Assembly: GCA_022842685.1 (NCBI GenBank)
Contig: JALHPC010000009.1
Location: forward strand, 5,353-69,352
Direction: 5' to 3'
From: Candidatus Kapaibacterium sp.
GTDB lineage: Bacteria > Bacteroidota > Ignavibacteria > Kapaibacteriales > Kapaibacteriaceae
DNA: 64,000 nucleotides
Below the pieces are notes generated by a model. That model saw only the letters and a list, made by a program, of their open reading frames with translations, made no database searches and was not told the DNA's origin. Below, piece by piece: positions 3,799 through 43,156 of the stretch (its first letter is position 1; the number at the start of each line of letters is the position of its first letter). Position numbers and translations under genes: made by a program.

Positions 3799-6700
3799 CT
3801 AATCTGGTTGATTCTGAGTCTCGTATTCTTCTTTAGCGGCCTCCGGCGTTGTACCAGCTCCAATGTCGAAGTACTGCACGTCGCCGTCACGTGAACCACC
3901 AGTACTTGAGCTCCACCTATATCCCAGCGTTTCGTTCTCCTTCAAATGATATCCAAAGGTGACGCTGAACTTCGTGTCGGTCCCTACTTCGTAGTTGACT
4001 AGTTTCCTCTCTTCGCCATCACTGCCTCTTGCAAAGAACGTAAGCCGAAAGCCTGCCTTACTCTTGGTTGTAAGGTGAAGGAATCCTGACCTGCTATCCA
4101 GCGCAAGGTCTCTTTCGGTATTGCCGTCACTGTCTTGCCACGAAGGAGAGAGATCAATGTTTATCTTCCTTCCTCGTTGTTTCAGGCTTCCAAGTAGAAT
4201 GTAATCGAAATTATCCGATTGATTACCTTTTACTCCTTGGTTGTCATGAAGCGCATTCCACTTAGCAGCTTCTCTCTTTTGTAGTTTGTTACAATTAATC
4301 GGTTCTACCGTGTAGTATCTATCTACGTATATTTTCTTTCCTCCTTTAAGTACTCTCTCAACAACACCAACCGGACCCGACCATGTGACTTTGAAATAGG
4401 CAGAGCCATCTGTTGGTGGTGTGCCTTTCTTACCTTCCAAACCATCCCAATCAATAGCTTGAATTGGAGTATTGCTTGCGAATTGATACGGTGTTAACTC
4501 CGGATACTCCATAGTCAGAGGATCTACACTATAGAACTTACTGAGCGTAGGGTTATAGATTCGAAAACCGTAATCCTGTGTTCCCGTTTCTTTATCATTC
4601 TCCTTGCCATTATATCCAAATCTATACTCTCCGCTACTAGCTTGTCTCCCTGGAATACCCATTCCAAACGCATAGTAGTCACGTGCACTCAACACATCGG
4701 CTGTTACGCCCGAAGTACCGGCAACTGGAATAGCAGCTATCATCCTTCGATCAGACACTGTAGCCAGTACATTGCCAAGGTGGTTGCTGAGCTCATACTG
4801 TTTGCTGCCACGAGAGATGCTGTCTTGAAATGCCGGGAGCGGTCTGATATTCTGCCAGTCAACTGGTCCTGTGATGCCTTGTCCGGGCGCGGAGATGTTG
4901 ATGCCCGCATTCCATACGCCGAGTCGGCTGCTTCCGTAGAGGTTCATCTCTTGGAGCGTGAAGGCCCCTTCATGGTCGCGGTACGTTGCCATGATGTTGC
5001 CCTGAGCATCACGCACGTAGTAAGTGGCCGTCTTCGTTGCTGCAACATATTTGCGAACTCTGTTGCCCAGCGCATCATACTCAAAATATAGGTCTTCACT
5101 TGTTGACTTTCGAATGGCTGTTATTTTACCCTGCAAATTCCACTCAATTATGCTAATGCTCTCACTTAGGTCTTGTATGAGGTTGCCGATAGCATCGTAC
5201 TTGTAATTTCCTTGCGTTTGGTTGTCAACATCCGTTACCGTTCCATTCACGGGGTTGGCCTCAGGGTAGTTCAATCCGGCAACGGCGTCGTTTACGTACG
5301 CAAGGCGATTAGTGGCATTCGTCGGCGGCGTTGTCATGCTTGGAATAACGTTGTTTGCAGCATCGAGATAGTGATACTGCAAACGGTCCATGTTCGGGTT
5401 CGTAACGCTGCCGTTTCGTTTCATGCTGAGGATGTTGCCGTTGCCGTCGTACGAGAGTTCCATTCGATAGGCATCATTCGTTAACAGCAACTGTCCGGTT
5501 GGCAAACTCTCAAATGCCTCCTGCTGTTTAATACGATTCAACACGTCGTAGCGGTAGTTCATTCCAAGCCCACCCAGTCCCTGCAGCCAAGTGTACATGC
5601 GCGAGATGTTGCCGTTGTATAGTGGCTGCACGTCACCGGTGGCAACATTTATCGCACTCGTTGGATTGAGCGATGAGCTTATTGCGCTGTAGTCATCGGT
5701 GTAGTACTGAAGAACATAGCCGAAGGCGTCAGCAGCAATGGGACTGTTGATGCTACGGTAGCCGGGGCCGCTAGTCATCTGCGCAGGATTAGTTTCGTTG
5801 ACTACGGTTACAGGTTGTCCGTTGACTATAACCGTCTGAGGACTACCGGGTTGCTCCAGTTCAATACCATCGCGCCCGGCATCCTGACTCCGTTCCTGTG
5901 TTGTGCCGTTGACACCCTTAACCCAGCCCTGCAGTGTATAGATGTAGTCGAGCCCCTGCACACGCAAGTGGCCAAGTACGGTGCGCGCTAGTGGACCATG
6001 TCGATAGTAGAGGTACTCTGCATCAACGTCCCACAGGATGCCCTTACTGCTTGATTCAACCTTCGTTAGCCGCAGTTCCGAGTCATATGTGTAACGATGT
6101 CTATACTCATCTGGCTGGCCGGGCGAGTACCGTACTTCGTTTACCTTCCCACTTACGAGATCGAAATTGTAAGCTATCGCCTTCGTACCCAGAGGTGTAT
6201 TCGGGTAGTCCTGGAGAAGCAAGGGCACGTTACCCGTTACATCATACGTATAGTGTGTTGCGTGACGATAGTCAGACGAGTACTGTTTGGCGTCATCTTC
6301 AAAACTGAATACACCTGCCACTCTTCCGCGCAAGTTATTCTGCCCACTTAGTCCGAACTTTCCAGACACAGCCGTTGAGAAAACGGCATCATACTGCGTG
6401 AACGTAATCTCGGCCCGTGGCTGAGAGTGAAGATAATTCTTCCAGTTACTGTAATCAGAAACGATACTTTGACTTAGTGGACCATTTAACCGAAGCTTGC
6501 CGCTCTCGACAACGCGTCCTAGCTTATCGTAATACGTGTAACTGTATGCGTTCGTTGACTGCTGCATAGCGTTCTGTGAGGCGGCAATACGTCCCAACTT
6601 ATCATACAGAAAGGTCGAACGTCCCGCATCCGGTGTTGTCTGCCATGATAGCTGATTGAGCGAATTGTATGCGTAGTTGGTAACAAAGGCATGTACAGGC

Positions 6701-9700
6701 AACACCGACACACCGTTTGGCATTCCTGCAGCATCCCTGCTGTTACGCGAGGCAGTTACAGCCGATGACGCACTTGGTGGTAGGAGACTCACACCAGAAG
6801 GTGGGACTGTACGCACAAGGTTCCCTGCTTGGTCGTAGTAGTACAGCGTATAGTGGTAAGAATCGTCCTGATACACATAGCCTGCCTCTTCGTTACTCAT
6901 CATACACTTGGCGTAGTACTTTGCACGGAGGTCTGCCTTCATGCTATCCACCCATGCTGTATATCGTTGGTGGGCGTCAAACTGTGCACTGAGAAACTGG
7001 GCCTGCACACAACCATCAAACGTGTTCAACGGTGGTGTCTGCAACAGCGAATCGTTGTTGCAGAATATCTTTGGTGGGCAAATCGTAACTGGGAAACCTT
7101 CACTAACTGCACGCACCTGAATTGTGTCGATTCTTCCCCTCGAAAACCGTCCAATTGTAAGGGTCATCGCGCTACTTCGCGATACGCTGCGCGCTACCGA
7201 AGCCACTGGCACAACACCAATCACGCGAATGGGCCCTGTTCCAAGATCACAGTTCTGAAGGCGGACAGTGCATGCCGTACGAGTGTCTCCAGTTTTCCTG
7301 GGTCCAGCAAATGGGACGATCTCACCGTTCTCTACTGAGAACGATGCCGTGCAGGTACGTCTGTCAATTGCATTCGGCGAGTTTAGATACCTAACGAGGT
7401 CCTTGACGCGTGGATTTATCATTCGACACGTGTCGACATTTCTTTTCCCGTCATTTAGCGTTGGACATGTTTTACACGTATCGCAGATGTATTCACTGGC
7501 CAACGATCGTGCCTGCGACTGAATTGCCGACATCTGAGCATTGGTTAGGCACCCATAGAGACTTGCGCCACCTAGATTGATGTTGGTGCCACTAAACGCA
7601 TCGTATCTGTTAGTGAATCGCTTTACCTTCCCTTTGTATAGATCTTCGTTCGTTCCACACACTTCTGAGTTATTCGTTGGAATCATGCCTTCTGGAGACA
7701 TTCCGGTACCATTCTTGCTCGAGCTTGGACTAAATGGCCCGTTGGGGATAAACGCATATACGTCAGAACCCACACAGCCGTTATAGCAGTCGTTCGACAC
7801 CGAGTACTGTAGGCGACTGAAATACAGGTACGTCTCCTTATACGACTGGTAGAGATTCCGGAGGATCTGCCATTCCAGGTCTGCCGTTGCGGGATCGGAG
7901 CCAAACGTATGTGCAGGATAGTAATTGACAGGGACGCTGCACGGCAGTGGTGGATTAGTAATATTCGTGCCCAGGCCAGTAGGACTTGCCGTGTTAGCCA
8001 CGGCCTGTTGGTATTGAGTTTGGGCCTGACAGTATGCAATGTCCATCGCCATACGCAGAACGGACACTCCACCTCCACATGGGTTGTGAAGCACGTTCTC
8101 GAACGCAATGCGGTTCGTTAACCCATAGCCAGATGCGAAGAACGGATCGGCATTGAGCAATTGGAGATATGGTACAACTGTAGAGCTGGAGTTCAGCAGC
8201 CCTTGTAACTGAGCCGCGTTGAGCGTGGTGGTTTGCGCCATGGCCACATCATAGTCCTTGCCCGTGTTCTCACTCTCGCACCATGTTAGCTGGCAGTACT
8301 CAGGATGGTGTTGTAGGAATACATCTGGAGATGTTGCTGGATCCCAGCTCAGGATGACTGATTCCAAGTCAGGTTTACCCGTCAAAGCCTGCCAATTCGC
8401 CGGTTGCGACAACGCGCTTGCTGGATTGAACACGGAGAGCGGATACGCGGCAGCAGTGTATTCCGTAACGCCGTTCACAACAACCACGTCGTAACCGCCG
8501 TACTGTCCTCCCGGTGATACATCTAAACGCATCGAACGTTTCGCAGCATCACACGCATTTACCGGGGCAGGACAAAGCTCATCGCATGCATTAACTGGTG
8601 CTGTTGTATTCTCAAGACATGTGCTGCATGACTGAAAACATCCAGCCGTATCAACGAGAGCCATCGCATGCGCTATAAAGGCGTCTAGTACCGCTCTACA
8701 TGTGTCTTCGAAGGCAAGTTCAACGTATTCATCGGCACTACTCTTGTTTACTGTCAGGACCTTAGTAAGCGTGTAACTTCCTATGTCTAGATAACGCTCG
8801 AACGAGGCTGGAAAGTTCGTTGGTTTACTAACACTTCCGTTTGCCGACCCAACACACTGCAGATCTACGTTGAGTCTCTCTGTGTCTGCAATCAGGTCAC
8901 CGAAGGTCCCAGAATACGAGAACAAGGGATCGGAGACGCATTCGCTATTGTTGACGAGACTCATCTCCAGACCGTAAATACAGTCGAGGCATACATCGCT
9001 CGGTTCGCACGTGACAAACTGTAACGATGACCCCTGTATGTTGTAGCTAAAGGTGTATGTACCTGCCTGTGTTACAACAAAGTGCTCGTTGATTGTCCGG
9101 CTATGCATCAGGGAGTCAACTACGTTACTGCCCATGAGATCTACTTCTATAACAGATTGGGCATTACTACCTTGAGGTCTATTGTCGAGCGGCAACATGT
9201 TCGTTGGATCTTTGCCAGCCAAAGCTGTGGCAATCGTCTTGCCCTCCGCATTGAGATATGACACGGATACCTGTCCATTCGGGTCAACCACCATGTTCTT
9301 TTGATACCGAATTGCATATCCAACCTCGGTGCCAAACATCCTGTCCAGCTCTGTCTGATTTGGTTTGGCATAGAAGTACCGCGTCTCATGGCCTGCATCC
9401 ATGGCAAACACCTGGCCCACTGAGGCCTGGCGGAAGGTTCGAACGGTATTGTCGGGTGTGTACTGCACCCTGGTGAACGGATACCCCTTACTATCGGGGA
9501 CGAAAGCGTTGAATCCTATCGTATTTGGGTTGTTCGGACTATAGTATGCCCCTGCTCCAATAGCACCCGCTGCATCACTCGACAAGGGGTCTGATGGTAA
9601 GGTGCAGTCTTCATATTCATCAAAGTCCAACCAGGAGTAGGCATTTCCTTGCTGGTTCTTGTTAAGCGAAGGTATAAACTCAATGGCACTGCGACTTGTA

Positions 9701-10902
9701 GGTATGGGCAGAATCTGAATCGCTGGCCTACCATTGAAATCGTAAATGACTTCCTGTGCTACGGTCTCTTTCGTTCGCTGCTGACGGTACATCCAACATA
9801 AGGGCCTAAATATACCCGGGCGTGGCATGGCTAACGAGCTTCGATTCTGTCCAACACCAGTAATGGTTTGGCGGCTCATTGTTAGACCATCGTAATACTG
9901 TGCCACGTCCTTGCGCTTGCCTTCTTCGCTATAGGTAGTGCTCAACTGCCAATTCATCCGCTCAGCCATGTGGCCTACCGTTACACGGTAGCGATGAACG
10001 AACGCGCTAACGAGTCCATCTGATGGACCCGTCCAAGCACACGGGATACGCTTGTCCCAGTTCGGCCCTCCAACACCTACTGCTCGCACACGGTACAAAA
10101 GATACCCTCTCTCGTATACAACAGGTACTCTGTAGTAAGTCTGTTTGGTTACTATGCGAGTGGAGTTCTCCTTAAAGTCATACGGTATAGAGCTTGGACT
10201 CAACGTCCCGTTGTTATCCGCGTAATCATCGCGATGGAGAATCTCAAATTCGTATTCTTCTGCGGCAGGAACTGGTTGCCAGTGTACTGTGAGCTCCTGA
10301 GATGTTCCGTCAAGGCAAGGTGGCAGTAGTTTCGGAGTCTGTGCAAATGTCGGCTGGAGGTAACGAGTCTGTTGGGACGTGAAGTTCAACTCGACGATCT
10401 TGCTGACTTCGGCACACAACTCGGGCGTCCCCATTGCTCCCAGTGTGGTTATAACAACCGATTGAATCACGAATTCGCTTTTGTACGCATTCGAGTACGA
10501 GTAGTAGTCCACTACTTTCGAGGCGTGAACAGACGGGTCGTGTCGTATTTGCAGACTTACGGAGACAGGGGGCGCAGGCGCTGTACTTCCAACCATCCAG
10601 TACGTAAGTGTTCCAGTAACTGTGATTTCATAGTCAAAGTGGATCGGTAAAAGAGTTGACTCTAGTTGTCGCAGCTCTACTGTATTCGTGGTGGCGTAGA
10701 ACTTCTGTGGGGAGTTCGTGAACGTTGCCCAGTTCTCTAGTGCGGCCAGTGACGCAGTATGCGTGATTGGTCCAGTAAATGGACTGAGAACGAATGTACT
10801 TCCCGTCATCGGAGTGATGATTCGAGGAAGTGAGACTGCCAGGATGTCAGGGCAAAGCGTTAGGCTGAACAGGGTAACCAACGTCACAAGGGTGTGCTTC
10901 AT
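3799..10902 (-). CDS. Giant RHS/YD-repeat protein (TcC-like). Signal peptide, FN3-like and Cys-rich N-terminal region, YD repeats, RHS repeat-associated core, and a 210-aa C-terminal variable toxin domain.
   Basis: N-terminal hydrophobic signal peptide. Many YxYDxxGR/N repeats, e.g. YTLYYYDQAGNLVRTV, YTYYDKLGRVVESG, YHYLDAANNV, YFEYDALGNRVRKY. Canonical RHS core end RFGYNGKENDKETGTQDYGFRIYNPTLSKFYSVDPL...IDWDGLEG, followed by a unique 210-aa tail. Confidence 0.8.
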   Translation of the reverse strand: MKHTLVTLVTLFSLTLCPDILAVSLPRIITPMTGSTFVLSPFTGPITHTASLAALENWATFTNSPQKFYATTNTVELRQLESTLLPIHFDYEITVTGTLTYWMVGSTAPAPPVSVSLQIRHDPSVHASKVVDYYSYSNAYKSEFVIQSVVITTLGAMGTPELCAEVSKIVELNFTSQQTRYLQPTFAQTPKLLPPCLDGTSQELTVHWQPVPAAEEYEFEILHRDDYADNNGTLSPSSIPYDFKENSTRIVTKQTYYRVPVVYERGYLLYRVRAVGVGGPNWDKRIPCAWTGPSDGLVSAFVHRYRVTVGHMAERMNWQLSTTYSEEGKRKDVAQYYDGLTMSRQTITGVGQNRSSLAMPRPGIFRPLCWMYRQQRTKETVAQEVIYDFNGRPAIQILPIPTSRSAIEFIPSLNKNQQGNAYSWLDFDEYEDCTLPSDPLSSDAAGAIGAGAYYSPNNPNTIGFNAFVPDSKGYPFTRVQYTPDNTVRTFRQASVGQVFAMDAGHETRYFYAKPNQTELDRMFGTEVGYAIRYQKNMVVDPNGQVSVSYLNAEGKTIATALAGKDPTNMLPLDNRPQGSNAQSVIEVDLMGSNVVDSLMHSRTINEHFVVTQAGTYTFSYNIQGSSLQFVTCEPSDVCLDCIYGLEMSLVNNSECVSDPLFSYSGTFGDLIADTERLNVDLQCVGSANGSVSKPTNFPASFERYLDIGSYTLTKVLTVNKSSADEYVELAFEDTCRAVLDAFIAHAMALVDTAGCFQSCSTCLENTTAPVNACDELCPAPVNACDAAKRSMRLDVSPGGQYGGYDVVVVNGVTEYTAAAYPLSVFNPASALSQPANWQALTGKPDLESVILSWDPATSPDVFLQHHPEYCQLTWCESENTGKDYDVAMAQTTTLNAAQLQGLLNSSSTVVPYLQLLNADPFFASGYGLTNRIAFENVLHNPCGGGVSVLRMAMDIAYCQAQTQYQQAVANTASPTGLGTNITNPPLPCSVPVNYYPAHTFGSDPATADLEWQILRNLYQSYKETYLYFSRLQYSVSNDCYNGCVGSDVYAFIPNGPFSPSSSKNGTGMSPEGMIPTNNSEVCGTNEDLYKGKVKRFTNRYDAFSGTNINLGGASLYGCLTNAQMSAIQSQARSLASEYICDTCKTCPTLNDGKRNVDTCRMINPRVKDLVRYLNSPNAIDRRTCTASFSVENGEIVPFAGPRKTGDTRTACTVRLQNCDLGTGPIRVIGVVPVASVARSVSRSSAMTLTIGRFSRGRIDTIQVRAVSEGFPVTICPPKIFCNNDSLLQTPPLNTFDGCVQAQFLSAQFDAHQRYTAWVDSMKADLRAKYYAKCMMSNEEAGYVYQDDSYHYTLYYYDQAGNLVRTVPPSGVSLLPPSASSAVTASRNSRDAAGMPNGVSVLPVHAFVTNYAYNSLNQLSWQTTPDAGRSTFLYDKLGRIAASQNAMQQSTNAYSYTYYDKLGRVVESGKLRLNGPLSQSIVSDYSNWKNYLHSQPRAEITFTQYDAVFSTAVSGKFGLSGQNNLRGRVAGVFSFEDDAKQYSSDYRHATHYTYDVTGNVPLLLQDYPNTPLGTKAIAYNFDLVSGKVNEVRYSPGQPDEYRHRYTYDSELRLTKVESSSKGILWDVDAEYLYYRHGPLARTVLGHLRVQGLDYIYTLQGWVKGVNGTTQERSQDAGRDGIELEQPGSPQTVIVNGQPVTVVNETNPAQMTSGPGYRSINSPIAADAFGYVLQYYTDDYSAISSSLNPTSAINVATGDVQPLYNGNISRMYTWLQGLGGLGMNYRYDVLNRIKQQEAFESLPTGQLLLTNDAYRMELSYDGNGNILSMKRNGSVTNPNMDRLQYHYLDAANNVIPSMTTPPTNATNRLAYVNDAVAGLNYPEANPVNGTVTDVDNQTQGNYKYDAIGNLIQDLSESISIIEWNLQGKITAIRKSTSEDLYFEYDALGNRVRKYVAATKTATYYVRDAQGNIMATYRDHEGAFTLQEMNLYGSSRLGVWNAGINISAPGQGITGPVDWQNIRPLPAFQDSISRGSKQYELSNHLGNVLATVSDRRMIAAIPVAGTSGVTADVLSARDYYAFGMGIPGRQASSGEYRFGYNGKENDKETGTQDYGFRIYNPTLSKFYSVDPLTMEYPELTPYQFASNTPIQAIDWDGLEGKKGTPPTDGSAYFKVTWSGPVGVVERVLKGGKKIYVDRYYTVEPINCNKLQKREAAKWNALHDNQGVKGNQSDNFDYILLGSLKQRGRKINIDLSPSWQDSDGNTERDLALDSRSGFLHLTTKSKAGFRLTFFARGSDGEERKLVNYEVGTDTKFSVTFGYHLKENETLGYRWSSSTGGSRDGDVQYFDIGAGTTPEAAKEEYETQNQPD

Positions 10903-10903
10903 A

Positions 10904-11614
10904 TCAGTCTATGACCTGTAGTTGGTACCCTGCGTACTTTGACGACGGAGCGTAGAAGCCATCATCATCTGTCAGGTAGTCTGTCAACGAAGGGATGTGG
11001 GAATTGTCGAGATAGGAGTACGAGTAGTCGATCCTGATGAACACTGGTTTGCGTTTCGCCGTTGGAGAAACAAACAATTGGGCAAGGATTGGGTTGTCTC
11101 CCGACACCTCCATCACGACGCCGACCAGTTGGCGGAACGTTGTATCAATCTCTATCGTGATTGCTCGTGTGCCGAAGCGCCCCCCGCTAAGTGCGTATTG
11201 TAACACAGAGCCACCCTGGTGATTGATGCGTAACTTCTCGAATCCCGCCACATAGGGGGAAAACATCTCTACCACCTGTGCGACATCTATGGAACCCTTT
11301 GCAAATGACACAACCATCAATTGAGAAGGGTTGCTTACTCTGACAATGTAGTTACCATCAGTGTACATCTCAACACCACTGAAGTCCACATACACAACAT
11401 TGCCGCGCTTGTGTATCGCGCAATGTCCGCTATCGAACGGCGTTGCCATAAGAGAGTCGTATGAGAACGTATATCGCTGCGAGACACGCATGCTTTGCGC
11501 GGAACGCAGGCGATCGGCAACGCCCCTGAGATTGTCCGAGAGCTCTTGCTCCTGTGCATGACTCCAGTAGTAGGTCACTGCTGACAACGCTACGATCGTG
11601 AGTCCAATTCTCAT
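10904..11614 (-). CDS. Secreted hypothetical protein (possible LolA-like beta fold), part of the RHS operon
   Basis: N-terminal signal peptide MRIGLTIVALSAVTYYWSHAQ. Its start overlaps the upstream gene's stop by 4 nt. Its end abuts the RHS gene start, so it is embedded in the operon. Confidence 0.45.
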   Translation of the reverse strand: MRIGLTIVALSAVTYYWSHAQEQELSDNLRGVADRLRSAQSMRVSQRYTFSYDSLMATPFDSGHCAIHKRGNVVYVDFSGVEMYTDGNYIVRVSNPSQLMVVSFAKGSIDVAQVVEMFSPYVAGFEKLRINHQGGSVLQYALSGGRFGTRAITIEIDTTFRQLVGVVMEVSGDNPILAQLFVSPTAKRKPVFIRIDYSYSYLDNSHIPSLTDYLTDDDGFYAPSSKYAGYQLQVID

Positions 11615-16200: not shown

Positions 16201-18134
16201 AGATGTGTTGCCTCGTAGAATCCATCCTTGCCGTTCGTGCCCCAGACTGTGAACGGATCGTAGCTGACTAGGCCCTCACCATCTGGCTGTTGGTTACTGT
16301 TGAGCGTAAAGGCAACTTCCTTTTGGGTGAGGTTATAGGTTGGCAAGCCAAATACGTACCGCATGCCATCGGTATTCGTTGCGACCATCTCGGATACATG
16401 ATGTCCCTTGCGAATACCTCCTAGGCGTGGTAGTCTTGTTACGACATTGTCGCAACTAAATCGATTCAACTGATAAACATCAATCGTCTTTACAAGGCCG
16501 TAAATACTTGCCTGGGTTGCAGTTCTGTGTTGAATATCAATAGTACGGGGTTCTCGTAACCGCTTCTTCGTATTCGTCGCGGTTACAGCCGATATCAGAC
16601 CGTTATTAGCAATCAGTTCCGATTCGACATCCACCTCCTTCTTGTACCAGGGTGTCTTCTTGATGTTGACCTCAACTGCGTTATCACCGAGCAGTGTCGA
16701 ATAGAGGTCATTCTCGTCAATCGTTACATCGGACGCATTCCTGAAGAATGCGGACTGAAACAACGAGTTTGGTTTCGTCGAGTCAAACGACAGCAGCGGT
16801 GTGATCGCCGAATACCAGCACCCTGATGTTGACGAGGATTGTGTGGTTGAGTGGCTTGCACCAACGTGGAATGCATTGCCAAATCCGACTTCGACGCCAA
16901 CGTTGTTGGCTGAGCCATTTGTTGCGACGCGATTGCTAAAGACAACTCCGATATCGTTCCTGGCTAACTGGAAGGAGCCAGAGATTCCTTGCGCATCTAC
17001 CGAGTAAATGTCATTGGTAAACGACGGGATGCCGATGTTGACGGTTGCGTCCTTGATATACGGACCGTCCTTCTCAAGCTGATAATCATGTAGCACATTG
17101 TCACCCACCTTCTTAGCCTGATCCGAGTACATGAAACCATATGCAGGCGTTGCTATGACATTCGTCGCTAGCCATTGCGTCGAATAATAACCGCTCAGCT
17201 CACCGTGTAGGTGCAAGAACCAGACTGCTCCGCCGGCCTTGAAGCTGCCTGTGAATGAGCGAGAGAGATAAGGATACGTGACGCGTGGAATCTCTGGTTT
17301 CTTCGAGAACGAATATGAGGCAGACGCTCCAAGAAGCGATGAACGCATTTCTTCTTTCGTCTGGTTACCGGTCTTCATTCCCTTACTGTCCCGGTGTCGC
17401 GTCGTTGTTGTGTAGTCGGCTCTTGCGGATAAGTCGACTGAGGCATTGATTGAGGTTTTTAGCCCATCAACAGAGTTGACCTTAACGAGACCCGTCAGCG
17501 ATCCACTTGCCGCCATGTCACTGTTAGTTTTCTGTTTCCACTTGACCGAAGGTTTCGCGAGCAAATCCACGCCAGATTCTGTATTGGCTTTCAATCCAAG
17601 ACTAAGCCCAGTGGTAATCGCGCTCCCTTCCTTGTGCACCGACATCGACAGTCCGTAACTCTGTTCTACGCCCCAACCGTTATAGGTATTATAGAAGATT
17701 CCGTAGCCAACGTTCAATGCTGGGCCGAGCGTGAAGCCCATGAGTTCAGCACCCGCGCCAACGTTTCCGCCATACGTTGTGTTAGGCCGCATGTGGATTC
17801 TTCGTGTTACGGTATCACCACAGAAGTCGTCAGGAATACCTCTCATCGAATGCGTTATCGAACCCGTGTTGATACTCCATCCAAGACCAACTGAGGAGGC
17901 AACGTCTTCCATGCCGACGCCAGACTGATAGGATAGGTTGACTGGGTAGCCTCCAACGTCAAACAAGGTTATGTTGTACGAGAACGACCCAGTTGATGTG
18001 TTCACGAGGTCCGTTGCCTCTGCTGGTTTGAATTGCGTGAAGTCGGGATTGCCAGGTCCACCTGTTTGCCCCATTGCTGGCATGACAGCCAGCACAACGA
18101 ATAGTGCTACGAGGACGTTACTTGCTGAGATCAT
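13263..18134 (-). CDS. SpvB/TcB-like protein (Tc toxin B-component N-terminal domain + degenerate RHS/YD repeats)
   Basis: Signal peptide MISASNVLVALFVVLAVMPAMGQ. The segment FSYNITLFDVGGYPVNLSYQSGVGMEDVASSVGLGWSINTGSITHSMRGIPDDF follows the SpvB/TcB consensus (xLxLxYNSGxGN..FGLGW.....I.RRT..GVPxYDD). Degenerate YD repeats occur later (EFYYDHGGRTDGLGV, YFTYDNT, YAWNLTSIRLPNGGSILAEYEP). Confidence 0.7.
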   Translation of the reverse strand: MISASNVLVALFVVLAVMPAMGQTGGPGNPDFTQFKPAEATDLVNTSTGSFSYNITLFDVGGYPVNLSYQSGVGMEDVASSVGLGWSINTGSITHSMRGIPDDFCGDTVTRRIHMRPNTTYGGNVGAGAELMGFTLGPALNVGYGIFYNTYNGWGVEQSYGLSMSVHKEGSAITTGLSLGLKANTESGVDLLAKPSVKWKQKTNSDMAASGSLTGLVKVNSVDGLKTSINASVDLSARADYTTTTRHRDSKGMKTGNQTKEEMRSSLLGASASYSFSKKPEIPRVTYPYLSRSFTGSFKAGGAVWFLHLHGELSGYYSTQWLATNVIATPAYGFMYSDQAKKVGDNVLHDYQLEKDGPYIKDATVNIGIPSFTNDIYSVDAQGISGSFQLARNDIGVVFSNRVATNGSANNVGVEVGFGNAFHVGASHSTTQSSSTSGCWYSAITPLLSFDSTKPNSLFQSAFFRNASDVTIDENDLYSTLLGDNAVEVNIKKTPWYKKEVDVESELIANNGLISAVTATNTKKRLREPRTIDIQHRTATQASIYGLVKTIDVYQLNRFSCDNVVTRLPRLGGIRKGHHVSEMVATNTDGMRYVFGLPTYNLTQKEVAFTLNSNQQPDGEGLVSYDPFTVWGTNGKDGFYEATHLPPYVTSHLLTAVLSADYSDVDSNGPSINDIGNYVKINYAKIHDYRWRTPYGTNKATFNKAFQSDQDDNKGSYVYGEKEQYYTHSIESKTHIAEFYYDHGGRTDGLGVKDEHGGRDVSQVILKLDSIKVFSINERATRGLAAAPIRVIYFTYDNTLCGGIQNSSTGTGKLTLKKVAFASGKSKRELLSPYTFEYGKMPNGTVVNPHYRAMQTNRWGYYQQVGYPYGPAGSPLSLQDFPYSSQDESEMNRAAYAWNLTSIRLPNGGSILAEYEPHRYAYTQDVRAGQMVSIVGSSPTVPTSPLAGTSTGNRWLVIKLPVALPSANRYEHLKYMYFNNDLSRFYYYRALVKLTEGNDEWISGYARIRSIKVIDATHAAIQLEGETVQDASSSPQWVSPIRKNAWQFMRMNRQDLCYGPAQPPGGDLEHFLKLSDLNQRVGDQFSAFFKGFNSYALLKNFAATFTPTQSIIRLFAPTRNKVIGGSRTKRVLTSDDWNAQSGQSGQTKTYTTDYEYTRTERDPVTGKDVLISSGVMEYEPFMGQDENMMREPVFIDQHIKMAPDNRLYIEKPYNENLFPAPNLIYSKVRVVANKTSLKVPGSGYQEYESFTARDYPVRSSLTPLGDNHEKKTSFLASFAMSILGISEAHDYVTLSQGAVITLNDMHGKQRSTRNYNSNNALVSSETLEYAIDRELLLTNHQGATYRSNKLGVSVDAICDSRTSEHMTNVGGVNLNVDAAFPPIVALVVPLPNISTEHTRLNTIAFNKIVKKKGLLVKKTVTDNGASISTENLLFDDKTGFVVMSKTTNEYNDSIFKYTYPAHWMYPGVSASYQTSGLTFTASTASNVTNQVMVQNQDVYNALAEGDEVVATNTGQRLWIMKKQPPNFVHMESYVVGVPINMSAGAACTVIRPGRRNLLTLEAGTVASMKNPVSGGLVDFSGIGTTARVINASAQVLDDVRVPYCACPPPPQEVCTPTNPPIKR

Positions 18135-19704
18135 TATTTGTCCTGCTATCAGCAACTGTGAAGTGAAAATATCGTGTTAACGTGCTCATACTAATCAGCA
18201 ATGTGTACGAGGTGTTTGCTCTGAGCCGATATTCCTTTAGTGGTATACGCACTCTATTTACCCCATTCGTGTTTGTTCCTGTTGAAAGGGGCTCACGGCC
18301 AGCGTACGTCACCTCTTGATCTTCCTCGTCGAATATCTGTATCGTTACTGGATCGCCGCTTGCATGTGGGTTAACGTATTGAATATACAGCGCATCGCTT
18401 GGCACGTCGGCAAACACATTCATCGGCTCATCTGCGGCTTCGTAATACTGGATTGAGCGGCTCAGTGTAACAGAGTCGGAGCAAAGTATCTCACCATTGC
18501 TACTCAACCACTCGTGGTGAACCACGAGTGCAGCTCTACTGCCAACAGTCATTTTCGCAGTGCCCAACACTGTAGTACCCGAAGGGACATCCCCCTTCCG
18601 GCGAGCAAGCCTCAGCTCGTTCGTAGCTGGGGGAATCTTCGATGGATTTGTTATCCAGTCGTCAAGTTCAAACGGTTCGAATCGCAAGACAGTATCACCT
18701 TTTCGAAAGTGAATTCGGACCTCCCGGGCATCCACTTCCGATGATGTGGAATCTAGGGAGTTTATGATGGTTATGCGATACAGACCCGAATCAGGCGACG
18801 TGCAGGTAACATCCAGTTTCCTTTTGGCGCACTGACTAATGGCCTCGGGTGAAACTATTTCGGTCGCTGCTCTTGGTAGAACACTAGGAGCCATAATTCG
18901 TTCGGGCTTAGCTTCACCTTCGTAGGTGAATGTCCAAACCTCACTTCGGCTGATTTCAGACTGCTGATTACGAGAACCTTCAGACGACACCGTAACCTGC
19001 CAAGCATAGCGTTTTCCAACCTCAAGTTTGCGCGCCGACGGTGGGTATTGCAGGGTAGCCATACGAAGACCATTCTGCTCAAATAACGACGGGTTCCTTG
19101 CCATTGCGTCAATCGGCGACTGTTCGCCAATAACTTCTACCATCCTCAACGTGTACACGGTGCCTTGTATGCTGGGTGCTGGCTGCATCCACGTGAAAGA
19201 TGGGCTGGTTCCGGTCTTGAGCACTTCGTTCTGACGGGGATTTATGAGGACGGGAGCCTGCGATATCATCACTGTTTGTTGGATGCAATCCTGGCCAAGC
19301 TGCCGTCCAGATCGATCTTCTGCGTAGATACAGATGGTGTACGACCCAGAGGGCGAACTGCCGCTGCGCACGATCGCCTCTTGGAATCGCCTGTTATTCC
19401 ATGTGTATTTACCGCCACCTGGAACATTATCCGCGTTGAAGACTCGCGATTCGTTGGCTTGCAATACGAATTGTCCCGTTCTACCTTCTACGATCCGGCC
19501 TTCTGAGGACTCGTCTACTGTTCCCCGTAGTGTTAATGTGATTGGCCCTGCCGTCGTATTGCGCACATTAACACTCCATAGGTCCTTTACGCGCAGTGTA
19601 TTCATCGGCGGTCTCTGAAGCCGAGTCTGAACTTGAGCACAAAGTGCCGTGGTACAGTAGATTGCTGCTATAACAATGAGAGTAATATTGCTCATTTTTA
19701 CCAT
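18118..19704 (-). CDS. Secreted protein with tandem beta-sandwich domains paralogous to the N-terminus of the adjacent outer-membrane barrel protein
   Basis: Signal peptide MVKMSNITLIVIAAIYCTTALCAQ. Domains GSYTICIYAEDRSGRQLGQDCIQQTV and TVYTLRMVEVIGEQSPIDAMARNPSLFEQNGL..RKLEVGKRYAWQVTV align to GNYEICVSAIDARSNSVVGRGCVQATTV and ITYTLKLVEMVGRQSGYDALRSNPSLIEMRGL..RRLEVGKSYAWSVEV of the 1034-aa ORF. Confidence 0.55.
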   Translation of the reverse strand: MVKMSNITLIVIAAIYCTTALCAQVQTRLQRPPMNTLRVKDLWSVNVRNTTAGPITLTLRGTVDESSEGRIVEGRTGQFVLQANESRVFNADNVPGGGKYTWNNRRFQEAIVRSGSSPSGSYTICIYAEDRSGRQLGQDCIQQTVMISQAPVLINPRQNEVLKTGTSPSFTWMQPAPSIQGTVYTLRMVEVIGEQSPIDAMARNPSLFEQNGLRMATLQYPPSARKLEVGKRYAWQVTVSSEGSRNQQSEISRSEVWTFTYEGEAKPERIMAPSVLPRAATEIVSPEAISQCAKRKLDVTCTSPDSGLYRITIINSLDSTSSEVDAREVRIHFRKGDTVLRFEPFELDDWITNPSKIPPATNELRLARRKGDVPSGTTVLGTAKMTVGSRAALVVHHEWLSSNGEILCSDSVTLSRSIQYYEAADEPMNVFADVPSDALYIQYVNPHASGDPVTIQIFDEEDQEVTYAGREPLSTGTNTNGVNRVRIPLKEYRLRANTSYTLLISMSTLTRYFHFTVADSRTNNDLSK

Positions 19705-22700
19705 CGTGAGGTAATCGATGCGGAGAAGATGAACTCATCATAATTGTTGCCAATTATAGTCATATCGTTGTACGCAGTCTTTTCGGCACGCATGTTCAGG
19801 GATAACGCTTCTGTTAGAACGAGGGAAGCCGTTGCAAAGAGACCAAGTCTGTCATTTTGTCCCCGTTCGGCGGCGACGTTCAGTCCAGCGTTCGCAAGGA
19901 GGAACGATGCAACTGGATACGATGCGTTCACTTCCATGCTGTTAATTATTCGATAGCCGACGCTAGACTGTGTCTCGACGATACCATAATTAATCCCTAC
20001 TTGAAGCGGAAAATCGAAACTAATATGTTCGGAAAGAAGATAGTTCGTGGAGCTGAAGTCGTTCAAGCCGTTACTGTTAATCGTCTGTTGACCATTGACA
20101 CTAAGAGACGTTGTGAAGGACCATGAGTCAACGTGCATTGTATAGCCCGTAGCGATAGAGTACACGTTCAAGTCGGTATTCAACTGACGTAAGGCTAGTG
20201 TATCATCGTTACTTTGAGTAGTTGGCATGTAAGATGCCTGCAGAAAGGGAAGATCTGGTAGGCTCAGAGCCAGTGTAACGCCAAGATTCGTCATGGTAGT
20301 AGTGGCTGTCTTCCAGCTAATCAGATTATCGCTGTATTGTTTAACGAAGCCCCCTAACTGCAGTACGTCGTTAAAGAGAGATTGGTTGAGAAAGATCTCG
20401 AATCCTTGTATGTCGGTCCGCAGAAACGGTACGCCAAGTGAGGCGTAACCTGGTCCAACCATCTTGTATTCCGCTGACGCGAGTGTGCGACTTGCCGGAT
20501 TATTGAAGACGAGTTTTCCGGCATAGACATAGTCGACTTGTGAGCTAATACGTGGCCGAATGACCCGTGCAAGAGCTGTGGGTATAGCATTAGTTTCAAG
20601 TTCCGGATCTCGTGTATCACGAGTGAGCACACTTGCATTGGCCTCGCCCTGAAATGTCAAGACGTTATCGAAGAGATTAACCGACACATCAACACCAAAG
20701 GCAGCATTCTGCTGTGGCGTCAGCAGCGGGTCGTTCGATACGGATGAAATCGACGTCTGGTCGTCGTTTACATACATTCCGGTTAGGATTACATGAGTGC
20801 CTTCAAGCCGACCAACGCCAACCCTACCTGCATACAATTGCCGGCCATATGACAGGTTGTCAAGGGGGCGTTGATTCGTAAGAGCCGTGAATGCTGCGTA
20901 GAGTAGCCCTTGATCTACTTCGGCATTGAGACCAGTAACTGGTAGTCCTGAAAGGATATAGCTAGAGTAACTTGGATAGTTCGTTCCAATGCCCATTGAT
21001 CGAATACCTAAGAAGAAGCTCTCTGCGCCACTGATTTCAGCGTGCTTCCTAAGGTTAGAAGCCAGGTCATTAGGATTTGACAGGCTGTTAACGTTGTAGG
21101 TGACTTCTGCGTTGCGCTCAACAAGGTGATCGATCTTTCCTTGTTTTTCTGCTTGCATTTCGCTGATTTCGCTCTCCGTCATGGAACGAAGTTGATTCGG
21201 ATCGTCAAGCTTAGGATACGACCGTGAAATCTCCGCCTCTGCCTTTGTTCGATATTCAATCAGTTCTTGTTCGATGGATCGCTTCAATCTGTTCGCAAGT
21301 CCCTCTCTCATTGCATTGAAGTCAAAGTTGAAGGAGAACATGTTCATACTCTGACGGGATGAGTCTTGGAGGGTTGAGAGAAGAACATTCGCTGAAAACG
21401 GCAACCCAAAGACGTTAACACCAGGGTTGAGATTCGCTGTTGCGAAACTCCTCGGTGTTGTTGAGAACGATCCGATTCGGTTTGAGTTCTGATATTCTAT
21501 CGTGCTGTTTCCCGTAAGCGCGAATGTTGGTACATTTGGTGCATTGGGGTTCTGAAATAGCTGATTCTGGTAGTTCGATGTTGTTGCAATAGGAATACCA
21601 AGGGAGAGACTTGAGTATGCACTTGGGAAGAGTGGTGCAACTTGGTCGGGTGGACATTCACAGGGGGGGGGCTTACCACAACACCTCCCTAGTTCCGTGT
21701 TCTGGCCTGAGTTACGAAGCGATAGCTCGTAAACCTCACTATTCTGCATGAGAACATTATTCAGGTACACCTCGACGCTCCAAGCATACGACTTACCCAC
21801 CTCTAGTCGCCTTGCTGCAATCGGTAGAACAACTACTGTGTTTGTTAAACCTCGCATCTCGATAAGCGAAGGATTGGAACGAAGGGCATCATACCCACTT
21901 TGTCGCCCGACCATCTCGACGAGCTTCAAGGTATATGTTATTCGCGCACCTGCTGGAGCTGGAGCAGGTGGCAACCAACTGAATGTGATTGTACCCGCTG
22001 TGTATGGAATAGCTTCACTTTGAACCTGTTGTCTATATGCGTTTGTTCGGCGGCGAGTCGTAGTTCCGCTAATGATGTCGGTTTTCAGCGTTTCCGCCGG
22101 GTGAGCCGAGTTACTGCTATCTTGCTCTTTCGCATGCTGACTCGTTGTGTGTTGTTCTCCTATGACCTCGCCTATCGACTCGAGAATAGACCGCACTCTC
22201 TTCGAACCGTTCTCGTCGGTAGGTGCGGACGATCTAGCACGGCGCGCGCCTACGAGAATATTGGCGTTATTCGAGGGCTGCAGAAGCTGTATGCGTGTCA
22301 ATTGAACGGTCGTGGCTTGCACACAACCTCGTCCAACAACGGAGTTCGATCGCGCATCAATCGCGGATACACAAATTTCGTAGTTCCCAGTTGGAACGTT
22401 CCCTGTTCGCTTAACTACCTCTTCGTGGAAGACGCTTGATTGCTGGATCTGAATTGGTTGCAACATCGCAGCCGACATTACCCTCGTGCCTGGTGGCAGA
22501 TTAAATTGGCTGGTTCTAGCACGAACTATGAGTCCATGCTCTGATGTCGTTGCTACGCCTTCTAGAACAATAGGTATTGATTCTTGACTGAGGTTAGTAA
22601 GTGTTACTCTCCACATGTGTTCAGTCTTGAACTGGTTCTGCGGAGGTACAGAAAGCACAACCTGGACTGTCGTTGTTGACTGTGCCTTAGAAGTTGTGCT

Positions 22701-22760
22701 TAGGGAGCATAGAATAGAAATCAATAGCAGAGTGTATCCCCCTATACTCACGCTCATCAT
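19698..22760 (-). CDS. Large outer-membrane beta-barrel protein with an N-terminal repeated-domain/coiled-coil periplasmic region; first gene of the RHS operon
   Basis: Start set at ATGATG (M15) preceded by AGGAG. Signal peptide MMSVSIGGYTLLLISILCSLSTTSKAQS. The C-terminal ~550 aa show alternating hydrophobic/polar beta-strand periodicity and end in an aromatic residue (...FIFSASITSRW), typical of OMP barrels. A coiled-coil-like segment lies mid-protein. Confidence 0.55.
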   Translation of the reverse strand: MMSVSIGGYTLLLISILCSLSTTSKAQSTTTVQVVLSVPPQNQFKTEHMWRVTLTNLSQESIPIVLEGVATTSEHGLIVRARTSQFNLPPGTRVMSAAMLQPIQIQQSSVFHEEVVKRTGNVPTGNYEICVSAIDARSNSVVGRGCVQATTVQLTRIQLLQPSNNANILVGARRARSSAPTDENGSKRVRSILESIGEVIGEQHTTSQHAKEQDSSNSAHPAETLKTDIISGTTTRRRTNAYRQQVQSEAIPYTAGTITFSWLPPAPAPAGARITYTLKLVEMVGRQSGYDALRSNPSLIEMRGLTNTVVVLPIAARRLEVGKSYAWSVEVYLNNVLMQNSEVYELSLRNSGQNTELGRCCGKPPPCECPPDQVAPLFPSAYSSLSLGIPIATTSNYQNQLFQNPNAPNVPTFALTGNSTIEYQNSNRIGSFSTTPRSFATANLNPGVNVFGLPFSANVLLSTLQDSSRQSMNMFSFNFDFNAMREGLANRLKRSIEQELIEYRTKAEAEISRSYPKLDDPNQLRSMTESEISEMQAEKQGKIDHLVERNAEVTYNVNSLSNPNDLASNLRKHAEISGAESFFLGIRSMGIGTNYPSYSSYILSGLPVTGLNAEVDQGLLYAAFTALTNQRPLDNLSYGRQLYAGRVGVGRLEGTHVILTGMYVNDDQTSISSVSNDPLLTPQQNAAFGVDVSVNLFDNVLTFQGEANASVLTRDTRDPELETNAIPTALARVIRPRISSQVDYVYAGKLVFNNPASRTLASAEYKMVGPGYASLGVPFLRTDIQGFEIFLNQSLFNDVLQLGGFVKQYSDNLISWKTATTTMTNLGVTLALSLPDLPFLQASYMPTTQSNDDTLALRQLNTDLNVYSIATGYTMHVDSWSFTTSLSVNGQQTINSNGLNDFSSTNYLLSEHISFDFPLQVGINYGIVETQSSVGYRIINSMEVNASYPVASFLLANAGLNVAAERGQNDRLGLFATASLVLTEALSLNMRAEKTAYNDMTIIGNNYDEFIFSASITSRW

Positions 22761-22920
22761 CAGCTCCTGTCTTAGGATTCTAGCTTCGTCCACCTTACCC
22801 ACGCGAACGTAAGCAACCCACCTGGCGGTTTTGCTACTAGGTACTACTAGTTTCAGAATAGAAACTCAGGCGCTCCAGCAGTTAAAGGGATTACTCATGG
22901 ATGCCATTGTGATGAACTCT

Positions 22921-39851: not shown

Positions 39852-39931
39852 CGGCAACCACGTTGCTCGATACCGGGGCCTTGTTGTGGATAACTGTAAC
39901 TTCTTACGCTGATTCTGGTTATGTGGGTCTT

Positions 39932-43147: not shown

Positions 43148-43156
43148 TACGCCTAC

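Follow-up and report, generated by a model that had tools for sequence, protein, structure and literature searches.

Several described systems come close to the locus studied here. In the Tc (ABC) toxins, TcB and TcC form a cocoon, as in TcdB2-TccC3 of Photorhabdus and YenB/YenC of Yersinia. Other Rhs proteins, among them RhsA, RhsP, Tse5 and Tse15, are T6SS effectors, and type V secretion includes autotransporters and inverse autotransporters with their 12-strand barrels as well as two-partner systems. For Bacteroidetes, passages of the survey of Zhang et al. (2012; PMC3482391) describe Sec-exported RHS toxins, either in a 'TcdB/TcaC-like export pathway' or in a Sec-only ('T2SS') group, some with an N-terminal SpvB domain. 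According to these passages, the TcdB/TcaC class is defined by a toxin protein that carries SpvB together with an integrin-like propeller. The TANFOR polymorphic toxins of Bacteroidetes have a proposed T9SS export (PMC7073777).

We analysed a stretch of 64 kb (the window) that harbours six ORFs at 3799-22802, all present and co-directional on the minus strand:

g1, 19698-22802 (likely start 22757), minus strand, 1019 aa, predicted outer-membrane barrel protein
g2, 18118-19704, minus strand, 528 aa, paralogue of the g1 N-terminus
g3, 13263-18155, minus strand, 1623 aa from the ATG at 18134 or 1630 aa from the TTG at 18155, protein with a TcB-like fold
g4, 11611-13320 (likely start 13266), minus strand, 551 aa, DUF11 protein
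g5, 10904-11614, minus strand, 236 aa, predicted LolA3-family carrier
g6, 3799-10902, minus strand, 2367 aa, putative TcC-like RHS toxin

The g3/g4 and g4/g5 junctions are ATGA overlaps, a 1-nt spacer separates g5 from g6, g1 and g2 either overlap by 7 nt or leave a 2-nt gap, and g2 overlaps g3 by 17-38 nt. These ORFs and junctions bear out the coupled, co-directional genes described in an earlier, sequence-only reading of this DNA. As read from the translations, all six proteins start with signal-peptide-like N-termini. A co-directional gene (22921..24699, minus strand), located 118 nt upstream of the longest g1 ORF, encodes a TPR and LuxR/GerE-type regulator (Pfam TPR_12, E = 1.6e-30; GerE, E = 5.7e-10), which is a possible regulator of the operon. 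It had no match in any related locus examined and is not conserved in relatives. Elsewhere in the window, a protein with a Por_Secre_tail C-terminal domain (CTD) is encoded at 48422-51190.

Relatives of g3 are encoded in at least 586 species genomes. In a sample of 82 fetched loci, g2, g3, g4, g5 and the N-terminal region of g6 were found in the same order in 56, and 43 of these also encode the barrel protein. A g2-like gene is located upstream of g3 in 63 of the 82 loci, an orthologue of g5 occupies the same position in 71, a small lipoprotein-like family lies within the cluster in 42 and an OmpH/Skp gene in 18. In its fuller form in relatives, the cluster comprises the barrel, the g2-like gene, often Skp/OmpH and a small lipoprotein-like ORF, g3+g4, LolA3 and the RHS toxin, and it extends over dozens of genera in two phyla, Bacteroidota and Ignavibacteria (FCB group). 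Frames overlap or abut at the present locus, and its gene order is shared by the clusters of relatives. Because this order recurs across the fetched loci, the clustering is far beyond chance; a survey of homologous neighbourhoods, as suggested in the sequence-only reading, has thus uncovered a conserved syntenic cluster. In RefSeq, the neighbours in the cluster are all annotated as 'hypothetical protein'. In some relatives, giant adhesin-like proteins with SprB, PKD and Ig repeats adjoin it.

The toxin candidate of the operon is g6. Starting from its signal peptide, it consists of an N-terminal beta-rich region, DUF6443, a Cys-rich insert, RHS repeats, the Rhs-associated core and a C-terminal domain:

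DUF6443, nt 9634-9792, minus strand
Rhs-associated core, nt 4438-4677, minus strand, ending in ..IDWDGL
orphan C-terminal domain, nt 3802-4437, minus strand, 212 aa
C-terminal remnant of an ISL3-family transposase, 3456..3764, plus strand

The RHS core that had been recognised by eye was confirmed with TIGR03696 (E = 2.4e-14, residues 2076-2155), next to matches to YD_repeat_2x, DUF6443 and RHS_repeat and, among PDB sequences, to SGS1, RhsA and Tse5. By homology, the core would be an autoproteolytic aspartyl protease. The C-terminal domain gave no Pfam, PDB or word-indexed homologue, a single weak match among 1.84e9 representatives and no recognisable toxin fold. Over the 300 aa up to the end of the core motif, relatives share 38-59% identity; similarity is abruptly lost after [AI][IL]D[WL]xG[LM], and the C-termini beyond the conserved core are mutually dissimilar, with a Gln_amidase toxin domain in one relative. 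In relatives on plasmids, the RHS gene is directly followed by a small ORF, and one case of an orphan cassette of core and C-terminal domain was found in Pontibacter. At the present locus we found no credible ORF after g6 in 2276-3798, in agreement with the immunity gene having been reported missing. The transposase remnant (Pfam DDE_Tnp_ISL3, E = 1.1e-8, profile positions 166-239 of 240) lies 35 nt from the g6 stop codon and marks this 3' flank as rearranged; GC falls here to 0.42-0.46. Since the remnant abuts g6 and plasmid relatives carry a small ORF at this place, the absence of an immunity gene is probably a secondary loss beside an IS scar.

By fold, g3 matches RHS shells; TcB proteins gave the longest superpositions (341 aa with TcdB2-TccC3, 343 aa with YenB), and the SpvB N-domain was matched as well. 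Two features stand out in its N-terminal part:

SpvB/TcB-like motif, 17823..18005, minus strand, residues 51-111, VNTSTGSFSYNITLF..VNLSYQSGVGM..GLGWSINTGSITHSMRGIPDDF
inserted domain, 17136..17822, minus strand, residues ~112-340 (~230 aa), predicted porin-like barrel

The motif aligned at the homologous position of SpvB/TcB, with an hhalign probability of only 11%. Sequence HMMs gave no link between g3 and SpvB/TcB and no other family assignment. The proposal that g3 carries the SpvB/TcB N-terminal domain therefore holds for its fold and one short motif but fails every HMM test. No beta-propeller gate and no FG-GAP or integrin-like propeller (TcA-docking) was detected in g3 by Pfam and fold searches. 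The inserted domain, which the earlier description did not include, is modelled with ~12 long antiparallel strands and is predicted to be a porin-like barrel of the outer-membrane type; its pLDDT is modest (~40-90), and its membrane location is suggested by hydropathy and fold only.

In nearly all relatives, g3 and g4 form a single protein of 1800-2600 aa. The C-terminal ~345 aa of g4 (nt 11614-12648) correspond by homology to the C-terminal end of these fused proteins; in most loci, tblastn and jackhmmer located this domain in the ORF that also encodes g3. Here g4 has gained a separate signal peptide as well as a DUF11 domain (E = 1.2e-5; TIGR01451, E = 3e-6), the latter as noted earlier; a weak CBM_4_9-like region (E = 4e-4) is also present. 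The YD repeats said to end the protein are backed by a sub-threshold RHS_repeat match only (E = 0.1). A shell assembled from three polypeptides, as had been suggested, would be a lineage-specific oddity.

The remaining genes encode putative envelope components. At the N-terminus of g1, two beta-sandwich domains with paralogues in g2 precede a low-confidence linker and the barrel:

predicted outer-membrane beta-barrel of g1, nt 19701-21524, minus strand, C-terminal half of the protein, ~26 strands

In the model, which has low overall confidence (pTM 0.44), the strands are broken by a ~100-aa helical insert and the C-terminal end is ...SITSRW; fold and hydropathy suggest a large barrel placed in the outer membrane. 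The sharing of two N-terminal domains by g1 and g2, pointed out before, was confirmed by BLASTP (E = 4e-19 and 7e-16). In g2, these DUF928-like domains (Pfam DUF928, E = 1e-7, residues 148-254) precede a C-terminal domain without known function. In the window, g1 is a g2-like module fused to the predicted barrel.

The g5 protein had been described as a small secreted protein. The description missed that it is, on its profile match, a LolA3-family (LolA-like) periplasmic carrier or chaperone. NCBIfam LolA3_fam matched g5 with E = 5.8e-19 and 68.5 bits, below the curated cut-off of 83 bits, and matched 10 of 10 positional orthologues, three of them above the cut-off. This family, with LolA3 of Flavobacterium johnsoniae (Fjoh_0605) and Porphyromonas gingivalis (PGN0947), is the only one matched by g5 and its orthologues. 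Published work describes LolA3 as a LolA-fold protein of the periplasm that forms no pair with LolB; neither gliding nor T9SS depends on it (PMC11885536, PMC13103446). The lolA3 deletion in F. johnsoniae had no gliding or T9SS phenotype, which is neutral and gives no functional support (PMC11885536). A link to RHS clusters is undiscussed in both papers, and 'Rhs', 'operon' and 'neighbo' occur 0 times in PMC13103446.

As stated in the sequence-only reading, no TcA, PAAR/VgrG, CdiB or T7SS genes were found in the window. In addition, Pfam and NCBIfam detected no TcA, PAAR, VgrG or T9SS CTD in the six proteins, nor did the large neighbouring ORFs of relatives contain one. The absence of a known injector (TcA, T6SS, T9SS tag) probably points to an uncharacterised deployment of RHS toxins, and it is plausible that export or delivery follows an undescribed route. 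We infer a route in which all components would cross the inner membrane via Sec, as their N-termini suggest, while Skp- and LolA-like chaperones may escort barrel-bearing or hydrophobic parts over the periplasm. The barrels of g3 and g1 would be inserted in the outer membrane, and, by analogy with the TcB/TcC fold, g3 (with g4) and g6 could enclose the cleaved C-terminal toxin in a closed cocoon that is tethered to this membrane. More speculatively, the toxin might exit by one of the two barrels, to a neighbouring cell or the medium. The TcB-like g3 with its own porin-like barrel would then replace the TcA syringe; the ~26-strand g1 barrel, the paralogous g2 and the LolA-like g5 would be supplied by the same operon, to which many Bacteroidota add Skp/OmpH and a small lipoprotein-like ORF. 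Delivery is difficult to envisage, however, because a barrel with an even number of strands would normally keep the shell on the periplasmic side.

We consider it somewhat more probable than a coin toss that the locus is the Ignavibacteria version of a multi-gene, Sec-dependent, outer-membrane RHS toxin system of the FCB group. Alternatively, export might depend on the T9SS; the cluster would then supply accessory factors or anchors instead of an export route, with the barrels acting as surface anchors. Its phyletic range matches that of the T9SS, the Por_Secre_tail protein lies in the window, adhesin-like giants sit beside the cluster in some relatives, and proteins encoded near Fjoh_0605 have reportedly been found in T9SS-dependent secretomes of F. 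johnsoniae. However, none of the six proteins matched the Por_Secre_tail or type-B CTD models of Pfam and NCBIfam, g6 ends in a variable, putative toxin domain instead of a sorting domain, T9SS cargo would make a dedicated barrel and Skp/LolA genes redundant, and T9SS amylase secretion was unaffected by the lolA3 deletion (PMC11885536). We regard this T9SS reading as unlikely. Even less probable is a teneurin-like complex for cell-surface adhesion or recognition, in which the outer membrane would display the YD shell as a structural scaffold and the C-terminal domain would act as a ligand: the Rhs-associated core is conserved, the C-termini are hypervariable past a sharp boundary and one relative has the Gln_amidase domain. 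Small downstream ORFs and the orphan cassette are likewise typical of toxin/immunity loci, and the IS scar would account for the missing immunity gene.

The TcB-like fold of g3 and the TcC-like architecture of g6 would also suit a conventional Tc toxin whose TcA is encoded elsewhere, and our inspection covered 64 kb of the genome only. Nevertheless, neither the window nor large unassigned ORFs of related loci contain a TcA-type domain, g3 has no detected TcA-docking propeller gate, and in four of five fetched plasmid TcB loci, unlike here, TcA (annotated 'neuraminidase-like domain-containing protein') is located directly upstream. All components here have predicted Sec signal peptides and the system has its own predicted outer-membrane barrels; classical Tc toxins are not known to have either. 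A distant TcA is therefore very unlikely. That most proteins lack a family annotation could suggest an ordinary Rhs toxin gene beside unrelated cell-envelope genes, an explanation we give almost no credence: it is effectively refuted by the recurrence of the gene order in dozens of genera and two phyla.

The data support the earlier proposal of a Tc-like (TcB/TcC-type) RHS system with a dedicated outer-membrane barrel and secreted accessories: a TcB/TcC-like polymorphic RHS toxin system, predicted to be built into the outer membrane, that has no TcA, PAAR/VgrG or T9SS tail and whose delivery route we infer. TANFOR toxins belong to a different N-terminal domain class. The passages of PMC3482391 share with our locus the Sec-exported RHS toxins, but a gene cluster with an outer-membrane barrel, LolA or Skp is not described there (0 occurrences of 'outer membrane beta'). 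In contrast to type V barrels, the predicted g3 barrel is internal, following ~110 residues of SpvB-like domain, and g3 has no POTRA or TPS domain and no sequence-family match. Unlike T6SS Rhs effectors, the proteins have predicted Sec signal peptides and a putative shell spread over two or three proteins, and PAAR, VgrG, Eag chaperone and T6SS genes are absent from the window and the conserved cluster. Compared to the Tc cocoon, TcA is missing, Pfam gave no signal for SpvB, TcdB_toxin_mid or FG-GAP, and a propeller gate was not detected; g6 bears an N-terminal extension of ~1450 aa (DUF6443 and the Cys-rich insert), and the cluster adds a predicted ~26-strand outer-membrane barrel, a DUF928-like protein, LolA3, often Skp, and a TcB-like g3 with an inserted, predicted porin-like barrel.

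The sequence-only reading had described six co-directional genes, and six open reading frames were indeed read within 3799-22802, all on the minus strand and with tight junctions. They are called g1 to g6 in the order of transcription and are given here with the transposase remnant that faces the last of them.

19698-22802, minus strand: g1, predicted barrel protein, 1034 aa as the longest frame (likely 1019 aa)
18118-19704, minus strand: g2, DUF928-like protein, 528 aa
13263-18155, minus strand: g3, TcB-like protein, 1630 aa as the longest frame (identical database protein, 1623 aa)
11611-13320, minus strand: g4, DUF11 protein, 569 aa as the longest frame (likely 551 aa)
10904-11614, minus strand: g5, LolA3-like protein, 236 aa
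3799-10902, minus strand: g6, RHS protein, 2367 aa
3456-3764, plus strand: C-terminal remnant of an ISL3-family transposase (Pfam DDE_Tnp_ISL3, E = 1.1e-8), oriented towards g6 with 35 nt between it and the g6 stop

The g3/g4 and g4/g5 junctions are ATGA overlaps, g5 and g6 are separated by one spacer base, g1 and g2 overlap by 7 nt or lie 2 nt apart, and g2 and g3 overlap by 17-38 nt. The likely starts of g3 and g1 were chosen because identical database proteins measure 1623 and 1019 aa, respectively; the nearest homologues of both are Ignavibacteria proteins, which makes an Ignavibacteria origin of the window probable. All six translations have signal-peptide-like N-termini. Scans for sigma-70 promoters and terminators, and against Rfam, were uninformative. 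We rejected a frameshift or sequencing error as the origin of the g3/g4 split, since g4 starts on a codon of its own within the ATGA overlap, bears a signal peptide and has DUF11 in addition, and close relatives of 1605-1631 aa show the same split length.

For g3, an SpvB/TcB N-terminal domain had been proposed. At the sequence level this did not hold: no match to SpvB, TcdB_toxin_midN/midC or TcB was obtained with Pfam (E <= 10), NCBIfam, phmmer or a 30-sequence family profile searched against PDB sequences. With an alignment of six SpvB/TcB N-domains (SpvB from Salmonella plus five TcB encoded on plasmids), hhalign placed g3 residues 72-108 on SpvB 55-88, which is the homologous position, over a motif of 33 columns only (E = 0.0027, probability 11%); the g3 family against single-sequence SpvB gave nothing at the motif. 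What stood, besides this short motif, was the likeness in fold. In an AF2 model of residues 1-1200 (50 homologues, pLDDT 76, pTM 0.74) an SpvB-like and RHS-shell fold is present as in TcB, and the longest superpositions were those on TcB proteins; Foldseek gave no significant match here. These superpositions support a TcB-like reading of g3 at the level of the fold and not of the sequence family. The beta-propeller gate by which TcB docks on TcA was not found in g3.

The g3 model also contains a segment that the sequence-only reading had not seen, with about a dozen long antiparallel strands at residues ~112-340. It also accounts for another group of structural matches, with KdgM at a Foldseek probability of 0.99. 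When hydropathy was averaged over the 50 homologues, the two faces of strands 125-227 lay at +1.6 to +2.4 and near -1 to -1.9, and the hydrophobic face of strands 418-436 reached up to +2.4 to +3.1; the shell strands are far less polarised than either group. In addition, a Hymenobacter plasmid protein of 1188 aa, annotated as 'RHS repeat domain-containing protein', has the N-terminal motif (E = 7e-9) and the mid-region in common with g3, lacks exactly the ~112-340 segment and is followed by a DUF6443 protein. Because of the strands, the KdgM match, the polarised hydropathy and the absence of the segment from this relative, we read residues ~112-340, where pLDDT is only 40-90, as a predicted, inserted barrel of the outer-membrane type. 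The Hymenobacter pair, on a plasmid of Hymenobacter sp. YIM 151858-1 (locus L083:8863-12429, then 12530-18198), is a minimal two-gene relative that may stand, in evolution, between classical TcB/TcC and the cluster with the barrel.

No family match was found for g1 in Pfam, NCBIfam or PDB sequences. The two domains said to be common to its N-terminus and g2 were recovered (E = 4e-19 and 7e-16), and g2 matches DUF928 in Pfam. The AF2 model of g1 is of moderate confidence (pLDDT 62.7, climbing to 70-90 over the last 260 aa) and has 26 long strands with a helical insert between them; 16 strands are amphipathic and the sequence ends in ..SRW. For both the C-terminus of g1 and the insertion in g3, the fold matches of these moderately confident models are exclusively or strongly to outer-membrane barrels and the dyad hydropathy is conserved, with W as the last residue of g1. 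After strand 4 of the predicted barrel, model residues 481-583 of g1 (~nt 21009-21317) form a helical, coiled-coil-like insert of ~100 aa.

In g4 we found one DUF11 repeat, as had been noted; the YD repeats at its end were detected as a terminal repeat with a match below threshold, and a weak CBM_4_9-like region was seen as well. The sole family matched by g5 is NCBIfam LolA3 (NF053579), over its full length and under the curated 83-bit cut-off (E = 5.8e-19, 68.5 bits). Ten positional orthologues of g5 all match LolA3_fam (29-146 bits, three over the cut-off) and no rival family, which points to LolA3 as the family encoded at that position of the cluster. The g5 family profile had no match among PDB sequences, although there is a published crystal structure of LolA3. 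For g1, g2, g3 and the N-terminal part of g6, searches of Pfam and NCBIfam and phmmer or profile searches of PDB sequences assigned only DUF928, DUF11, DUF6443 and the RHS core.

The RHS core of g6 was confirmed (TIGR03696, E = 2.4e-14, residues 2076-2155), together with YD repeats and DUF6443, and PDB sequence matches were to SGS1, RhsA and Tse5. Judged by its sequence, g6 is a bona fide RHS toxin and has the features of a TcC, namely RHS repeats, an Rhs-associated core (putative autoprotease) and a hypervariable C-terminus. The 212-aa C-terminal domain following ..IDWDGL had no match in Pfam or PDB and nothing in a word-indexed search of 5.8 billion proteins, and one weak repeat-like match in an exhaustive HMMER search of 1.84 billion representatives. 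The 300 aa up to the core motif share 38-59% identity with relatives, and the tails (202-330 aa), past the boundary [AI][IL]D[WL]xG[LM], are mutually without BLASTP similarity; in Bernardetia the tail is Gln_amidase, a domain of polymorphic toxins. A kinship of the N-terminal part of g6 with SpvB/TcB or with the g3 family was also considered, and the comparison gave no relationship.

In agreement with the sequence-only reading, no immunity gene follows g6: the 1.5 kb to the next gene holds no credible ORF and has a lower GC content (0.42-0.46). In the plasmid copies a small ORF lies directly 3′ of the RHS gene, and Pontibacter has an extra orphan cassette of core and C-terminal domain with its own small ORF. 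Since the ISL3 remnant lies so close to the g6 stop, the flank is low in GC and devoid of ORFs, and relatives carry small ORFs, the immunity gene was probably lost secondarily. In the same low-GC flank, beside the IS scar, 560-2275 (minus strand) encodes an AAA_15/AAA_21 ATPase of 571 aa, whose C-terminus shows weak similarity to an OLD-like TOPRIM; the protein resembles defence nucleases of the OLD or Gabija type.

A pattern scan with one genome per species found g3 relatives in at least 586 genomes, overwhelmingly of Bacteroidota (Chitinophagales, Sphingobacteriales, Flavobacteriales, Saprospiraceae and Cytophagales). The neighbourhood survey that had been proposed, carried out on 82 fetched loci with tblastn and iterative HMM searches, revealed a conserved syntenic cluster. 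The recurring order is a barrel protein of ~780 aa (48 of 82 loci), a g2-like protein of ~365 aa (63), a protein of 1800-2600 aa in which g3 (all 82) is fused to the g4 C-terminal domain (80), a LolA3-like protein (71) and a g6-like DUF6443/RHS protein (70). The g2, g3, g4, g5 and g6 N-terminal components occur together in 56 loci, and in 43 with the barrel protein too; many of the misses are contig ends. Between the g2-like gene and g3 we found two further families, neither of which is present in the window. One, an OmpH/Skp chaperone, occurs in 18 loci (Pfam E = 1e-13 to 2e-16). The other, in 42 loci, consists of small lipoprotein-like proteins of 120-235 aa without a Pfam match; all four members read have a signal peptide at the start and a cysteine early in the sequence. 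Examples from the fetched loci are:

L006:8682-9209, L016:8880-9383 and L022:8809-9324: OmpH/Skp chaperone
L003:568-1176 and L007:9347-9913: small lipoprotein-like protein

In RefSeq, OmpH is annotated in the plasmid copies of Aureibacter, Aureispira and Bernardetia, and nearly everything else is 'hypothetical'. The version of the cluster in the window is derived, because g1 is a fusion of a g2-like module with the predicted barrel, g3 and g4 are split, g4 has gained a signal peptide and DUF11, and Skp and the lipoprotein-like ORF are absent.

Some clusters encode an extra large protein (~600-2250 aa) in the interval from g3 to LolA3 that has only the g4-type C-terminal domain in common (for example L005:6110-11038, L017:16620-23378, L006:16104-18245), which suggests that this domain is a reusable docking module. 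Loci without the barrel and g2-like genes have a giant adhesin-like protein with PKD, Ig, SprB repeats, LamG and BNR upstream (L020:2845-9954, L063:1688-8530, L093:7687-14241). A few cluster-bearing MAGs (L024, L077 and L080) go under the names Hydrocarboniphaga, Akkermansia or Rhizobium; wrong binning or labelling of Bacteroidota contigs is the likely cause, and not an occurrence beyond the FCB group.

The cluster is best read as encoding an encapsulated RHS toxin of the TcB/TcC type that is deployed in connection with the outer membrane. Sequence and fold homology suggest that every part would be exported by Sec, and that g3, with g4, and g6 would enclose the C-terminal domain as a cocoon after its autoproteolytic release. 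Gene content and the predicted folds suggest that LolA3, together with Skp in other genomes, may act as chaperone, that the g3 and g1 barrels would go to the outer membrane, and that the toxin might exit via a barrel. Topology is the main difficulty, since an even-stranded barrel would keep the shell periplasmic, which makes the path of the toxin to a target hard to picture. Going further, the cluster could be a self-contained and previously undescribed outer-membrane secretion or delivery system for encapsulated RHS toxins, in which a TcB-like half-shell fused to its own pore, a ~26-strand barrel and LolA3/Skp replace TcA, T6SS or T9SS as the route of the released toxin across the outer membrane of the producer; we consider this a realistic possibility, though less likely than not.

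Three ways of deploying RHS/YD cocoons are known: the TcA syringe, the T6SS spike and the eukaryotic teneurins. RHS proteins of the DUF6443 type with Sec signals are very numerous in Bacteroidota, which dominate gut, soil and aquatic communities, and we found no description of their exit route in the literature. In hundreds of species the operon links an RHS toxin of this kind to the same partners, namely a TcB-like protein that contains a predicted porin-like barrel, a giant predicted barrel protein, a paralogue of LolA and, in many cases, Skp. Should the toxin leave through the barrels, Bacteroidota would have a new mechanism of delivery at the outer membrane, and the Tc cocoon would be workable without TcA. 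LolA3, left as an orphan in function by two studies (PMC11885536, PMC13103446), neither of which links it to RHS genes, would then gain a function. The fetched loci include isolates of the culturable genera Chitinophaga, Pedobacter, Mucilaginibacter and Niastella, so that the delivery hypothesis is directly testable. SpvB-associated and Sec-only RHS toxins in Bacteroidetes were already noted in a 2012 survey (PMC3482391), whose portion consulted here does not describe the barrel/LolA/Skp cluster; full-text searches of openly accessible literature found no description of it.

Other explanations concern the route and the role of the products. Dependence on T9SS would agree with the phyletic range, which is the same as that of T9SS. 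However, neither Por_Secre_tail nor any other C-terminal sorting domain of type A or B was found in g1-g6 with Pfam and NCBIfam. Por_Secre_tail was detected in an Ig-repeat protein of the window (48422-51190, plus strand), our positive control; the organism therefore has T9SS cargo. Near this gene, 52478-54772 (plus strand) encodes an Omp85/POTRA (BamA-like) protein, and 36636-46357 (plus strand) holds three paralogous genes in tandem for proteins of 1066-1166 aa; all have a beta-propeller domain of the arylsulfotransferase (ASST) type, and two of them fn3/Ig-like domains as well. Alternatively, a TcA might be encoded elsewhere in the genome. TcA is a pentameric translocator of ~2500 aa with VRP1, neuraminidase-like or TcA-type domains; no TcA-type domain was seen among the Pfam-scanned ORFs of the window, and in relatives four large ORFs without assignment beside the cluster encode adhesin-like (PKD, Ig, SprB, LamG) or RHS proteins, not TcA. 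A teneurin-like adhesion role is a further rival; the features that g6 and its relatives share with polymorphic toxins speak against it.

As the sequence-only reading had stated, no TcA, PAAR/VgrG, CdiB-like or T7SS partner occurs in the window (Pfam), and no TPS domain either. T6SS Rhs effectors lack a signal peptide and are marked by PAAR or a VgrG-interaction domain at the N-terminus and by an Eag chaperone or T6SS genes nearby. In contrast, the operon proteins gave no PAAR, VgrG or DUF1795 match, T6SS genes are absent from the window and from the conserved cluster, and the start of g6 is signal-peptide-like. Among Tc toxins, of the five plasmid TcB loci fetched, four have TcA directly upstream of TcB, whereas none is found in the window; the cluster thus differs from Tc toxins at the sequence level, with no TcA and no SpvB or propeller HMM match, but in its working it is most like their BC sub-complex. 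The RHS core is conserved, the C-termini become variable abruptly after it, and relatives have small ORFs and an orphan cassette downstream; by these features the cluster falls within the definition of Rhs polymorphic toxins.
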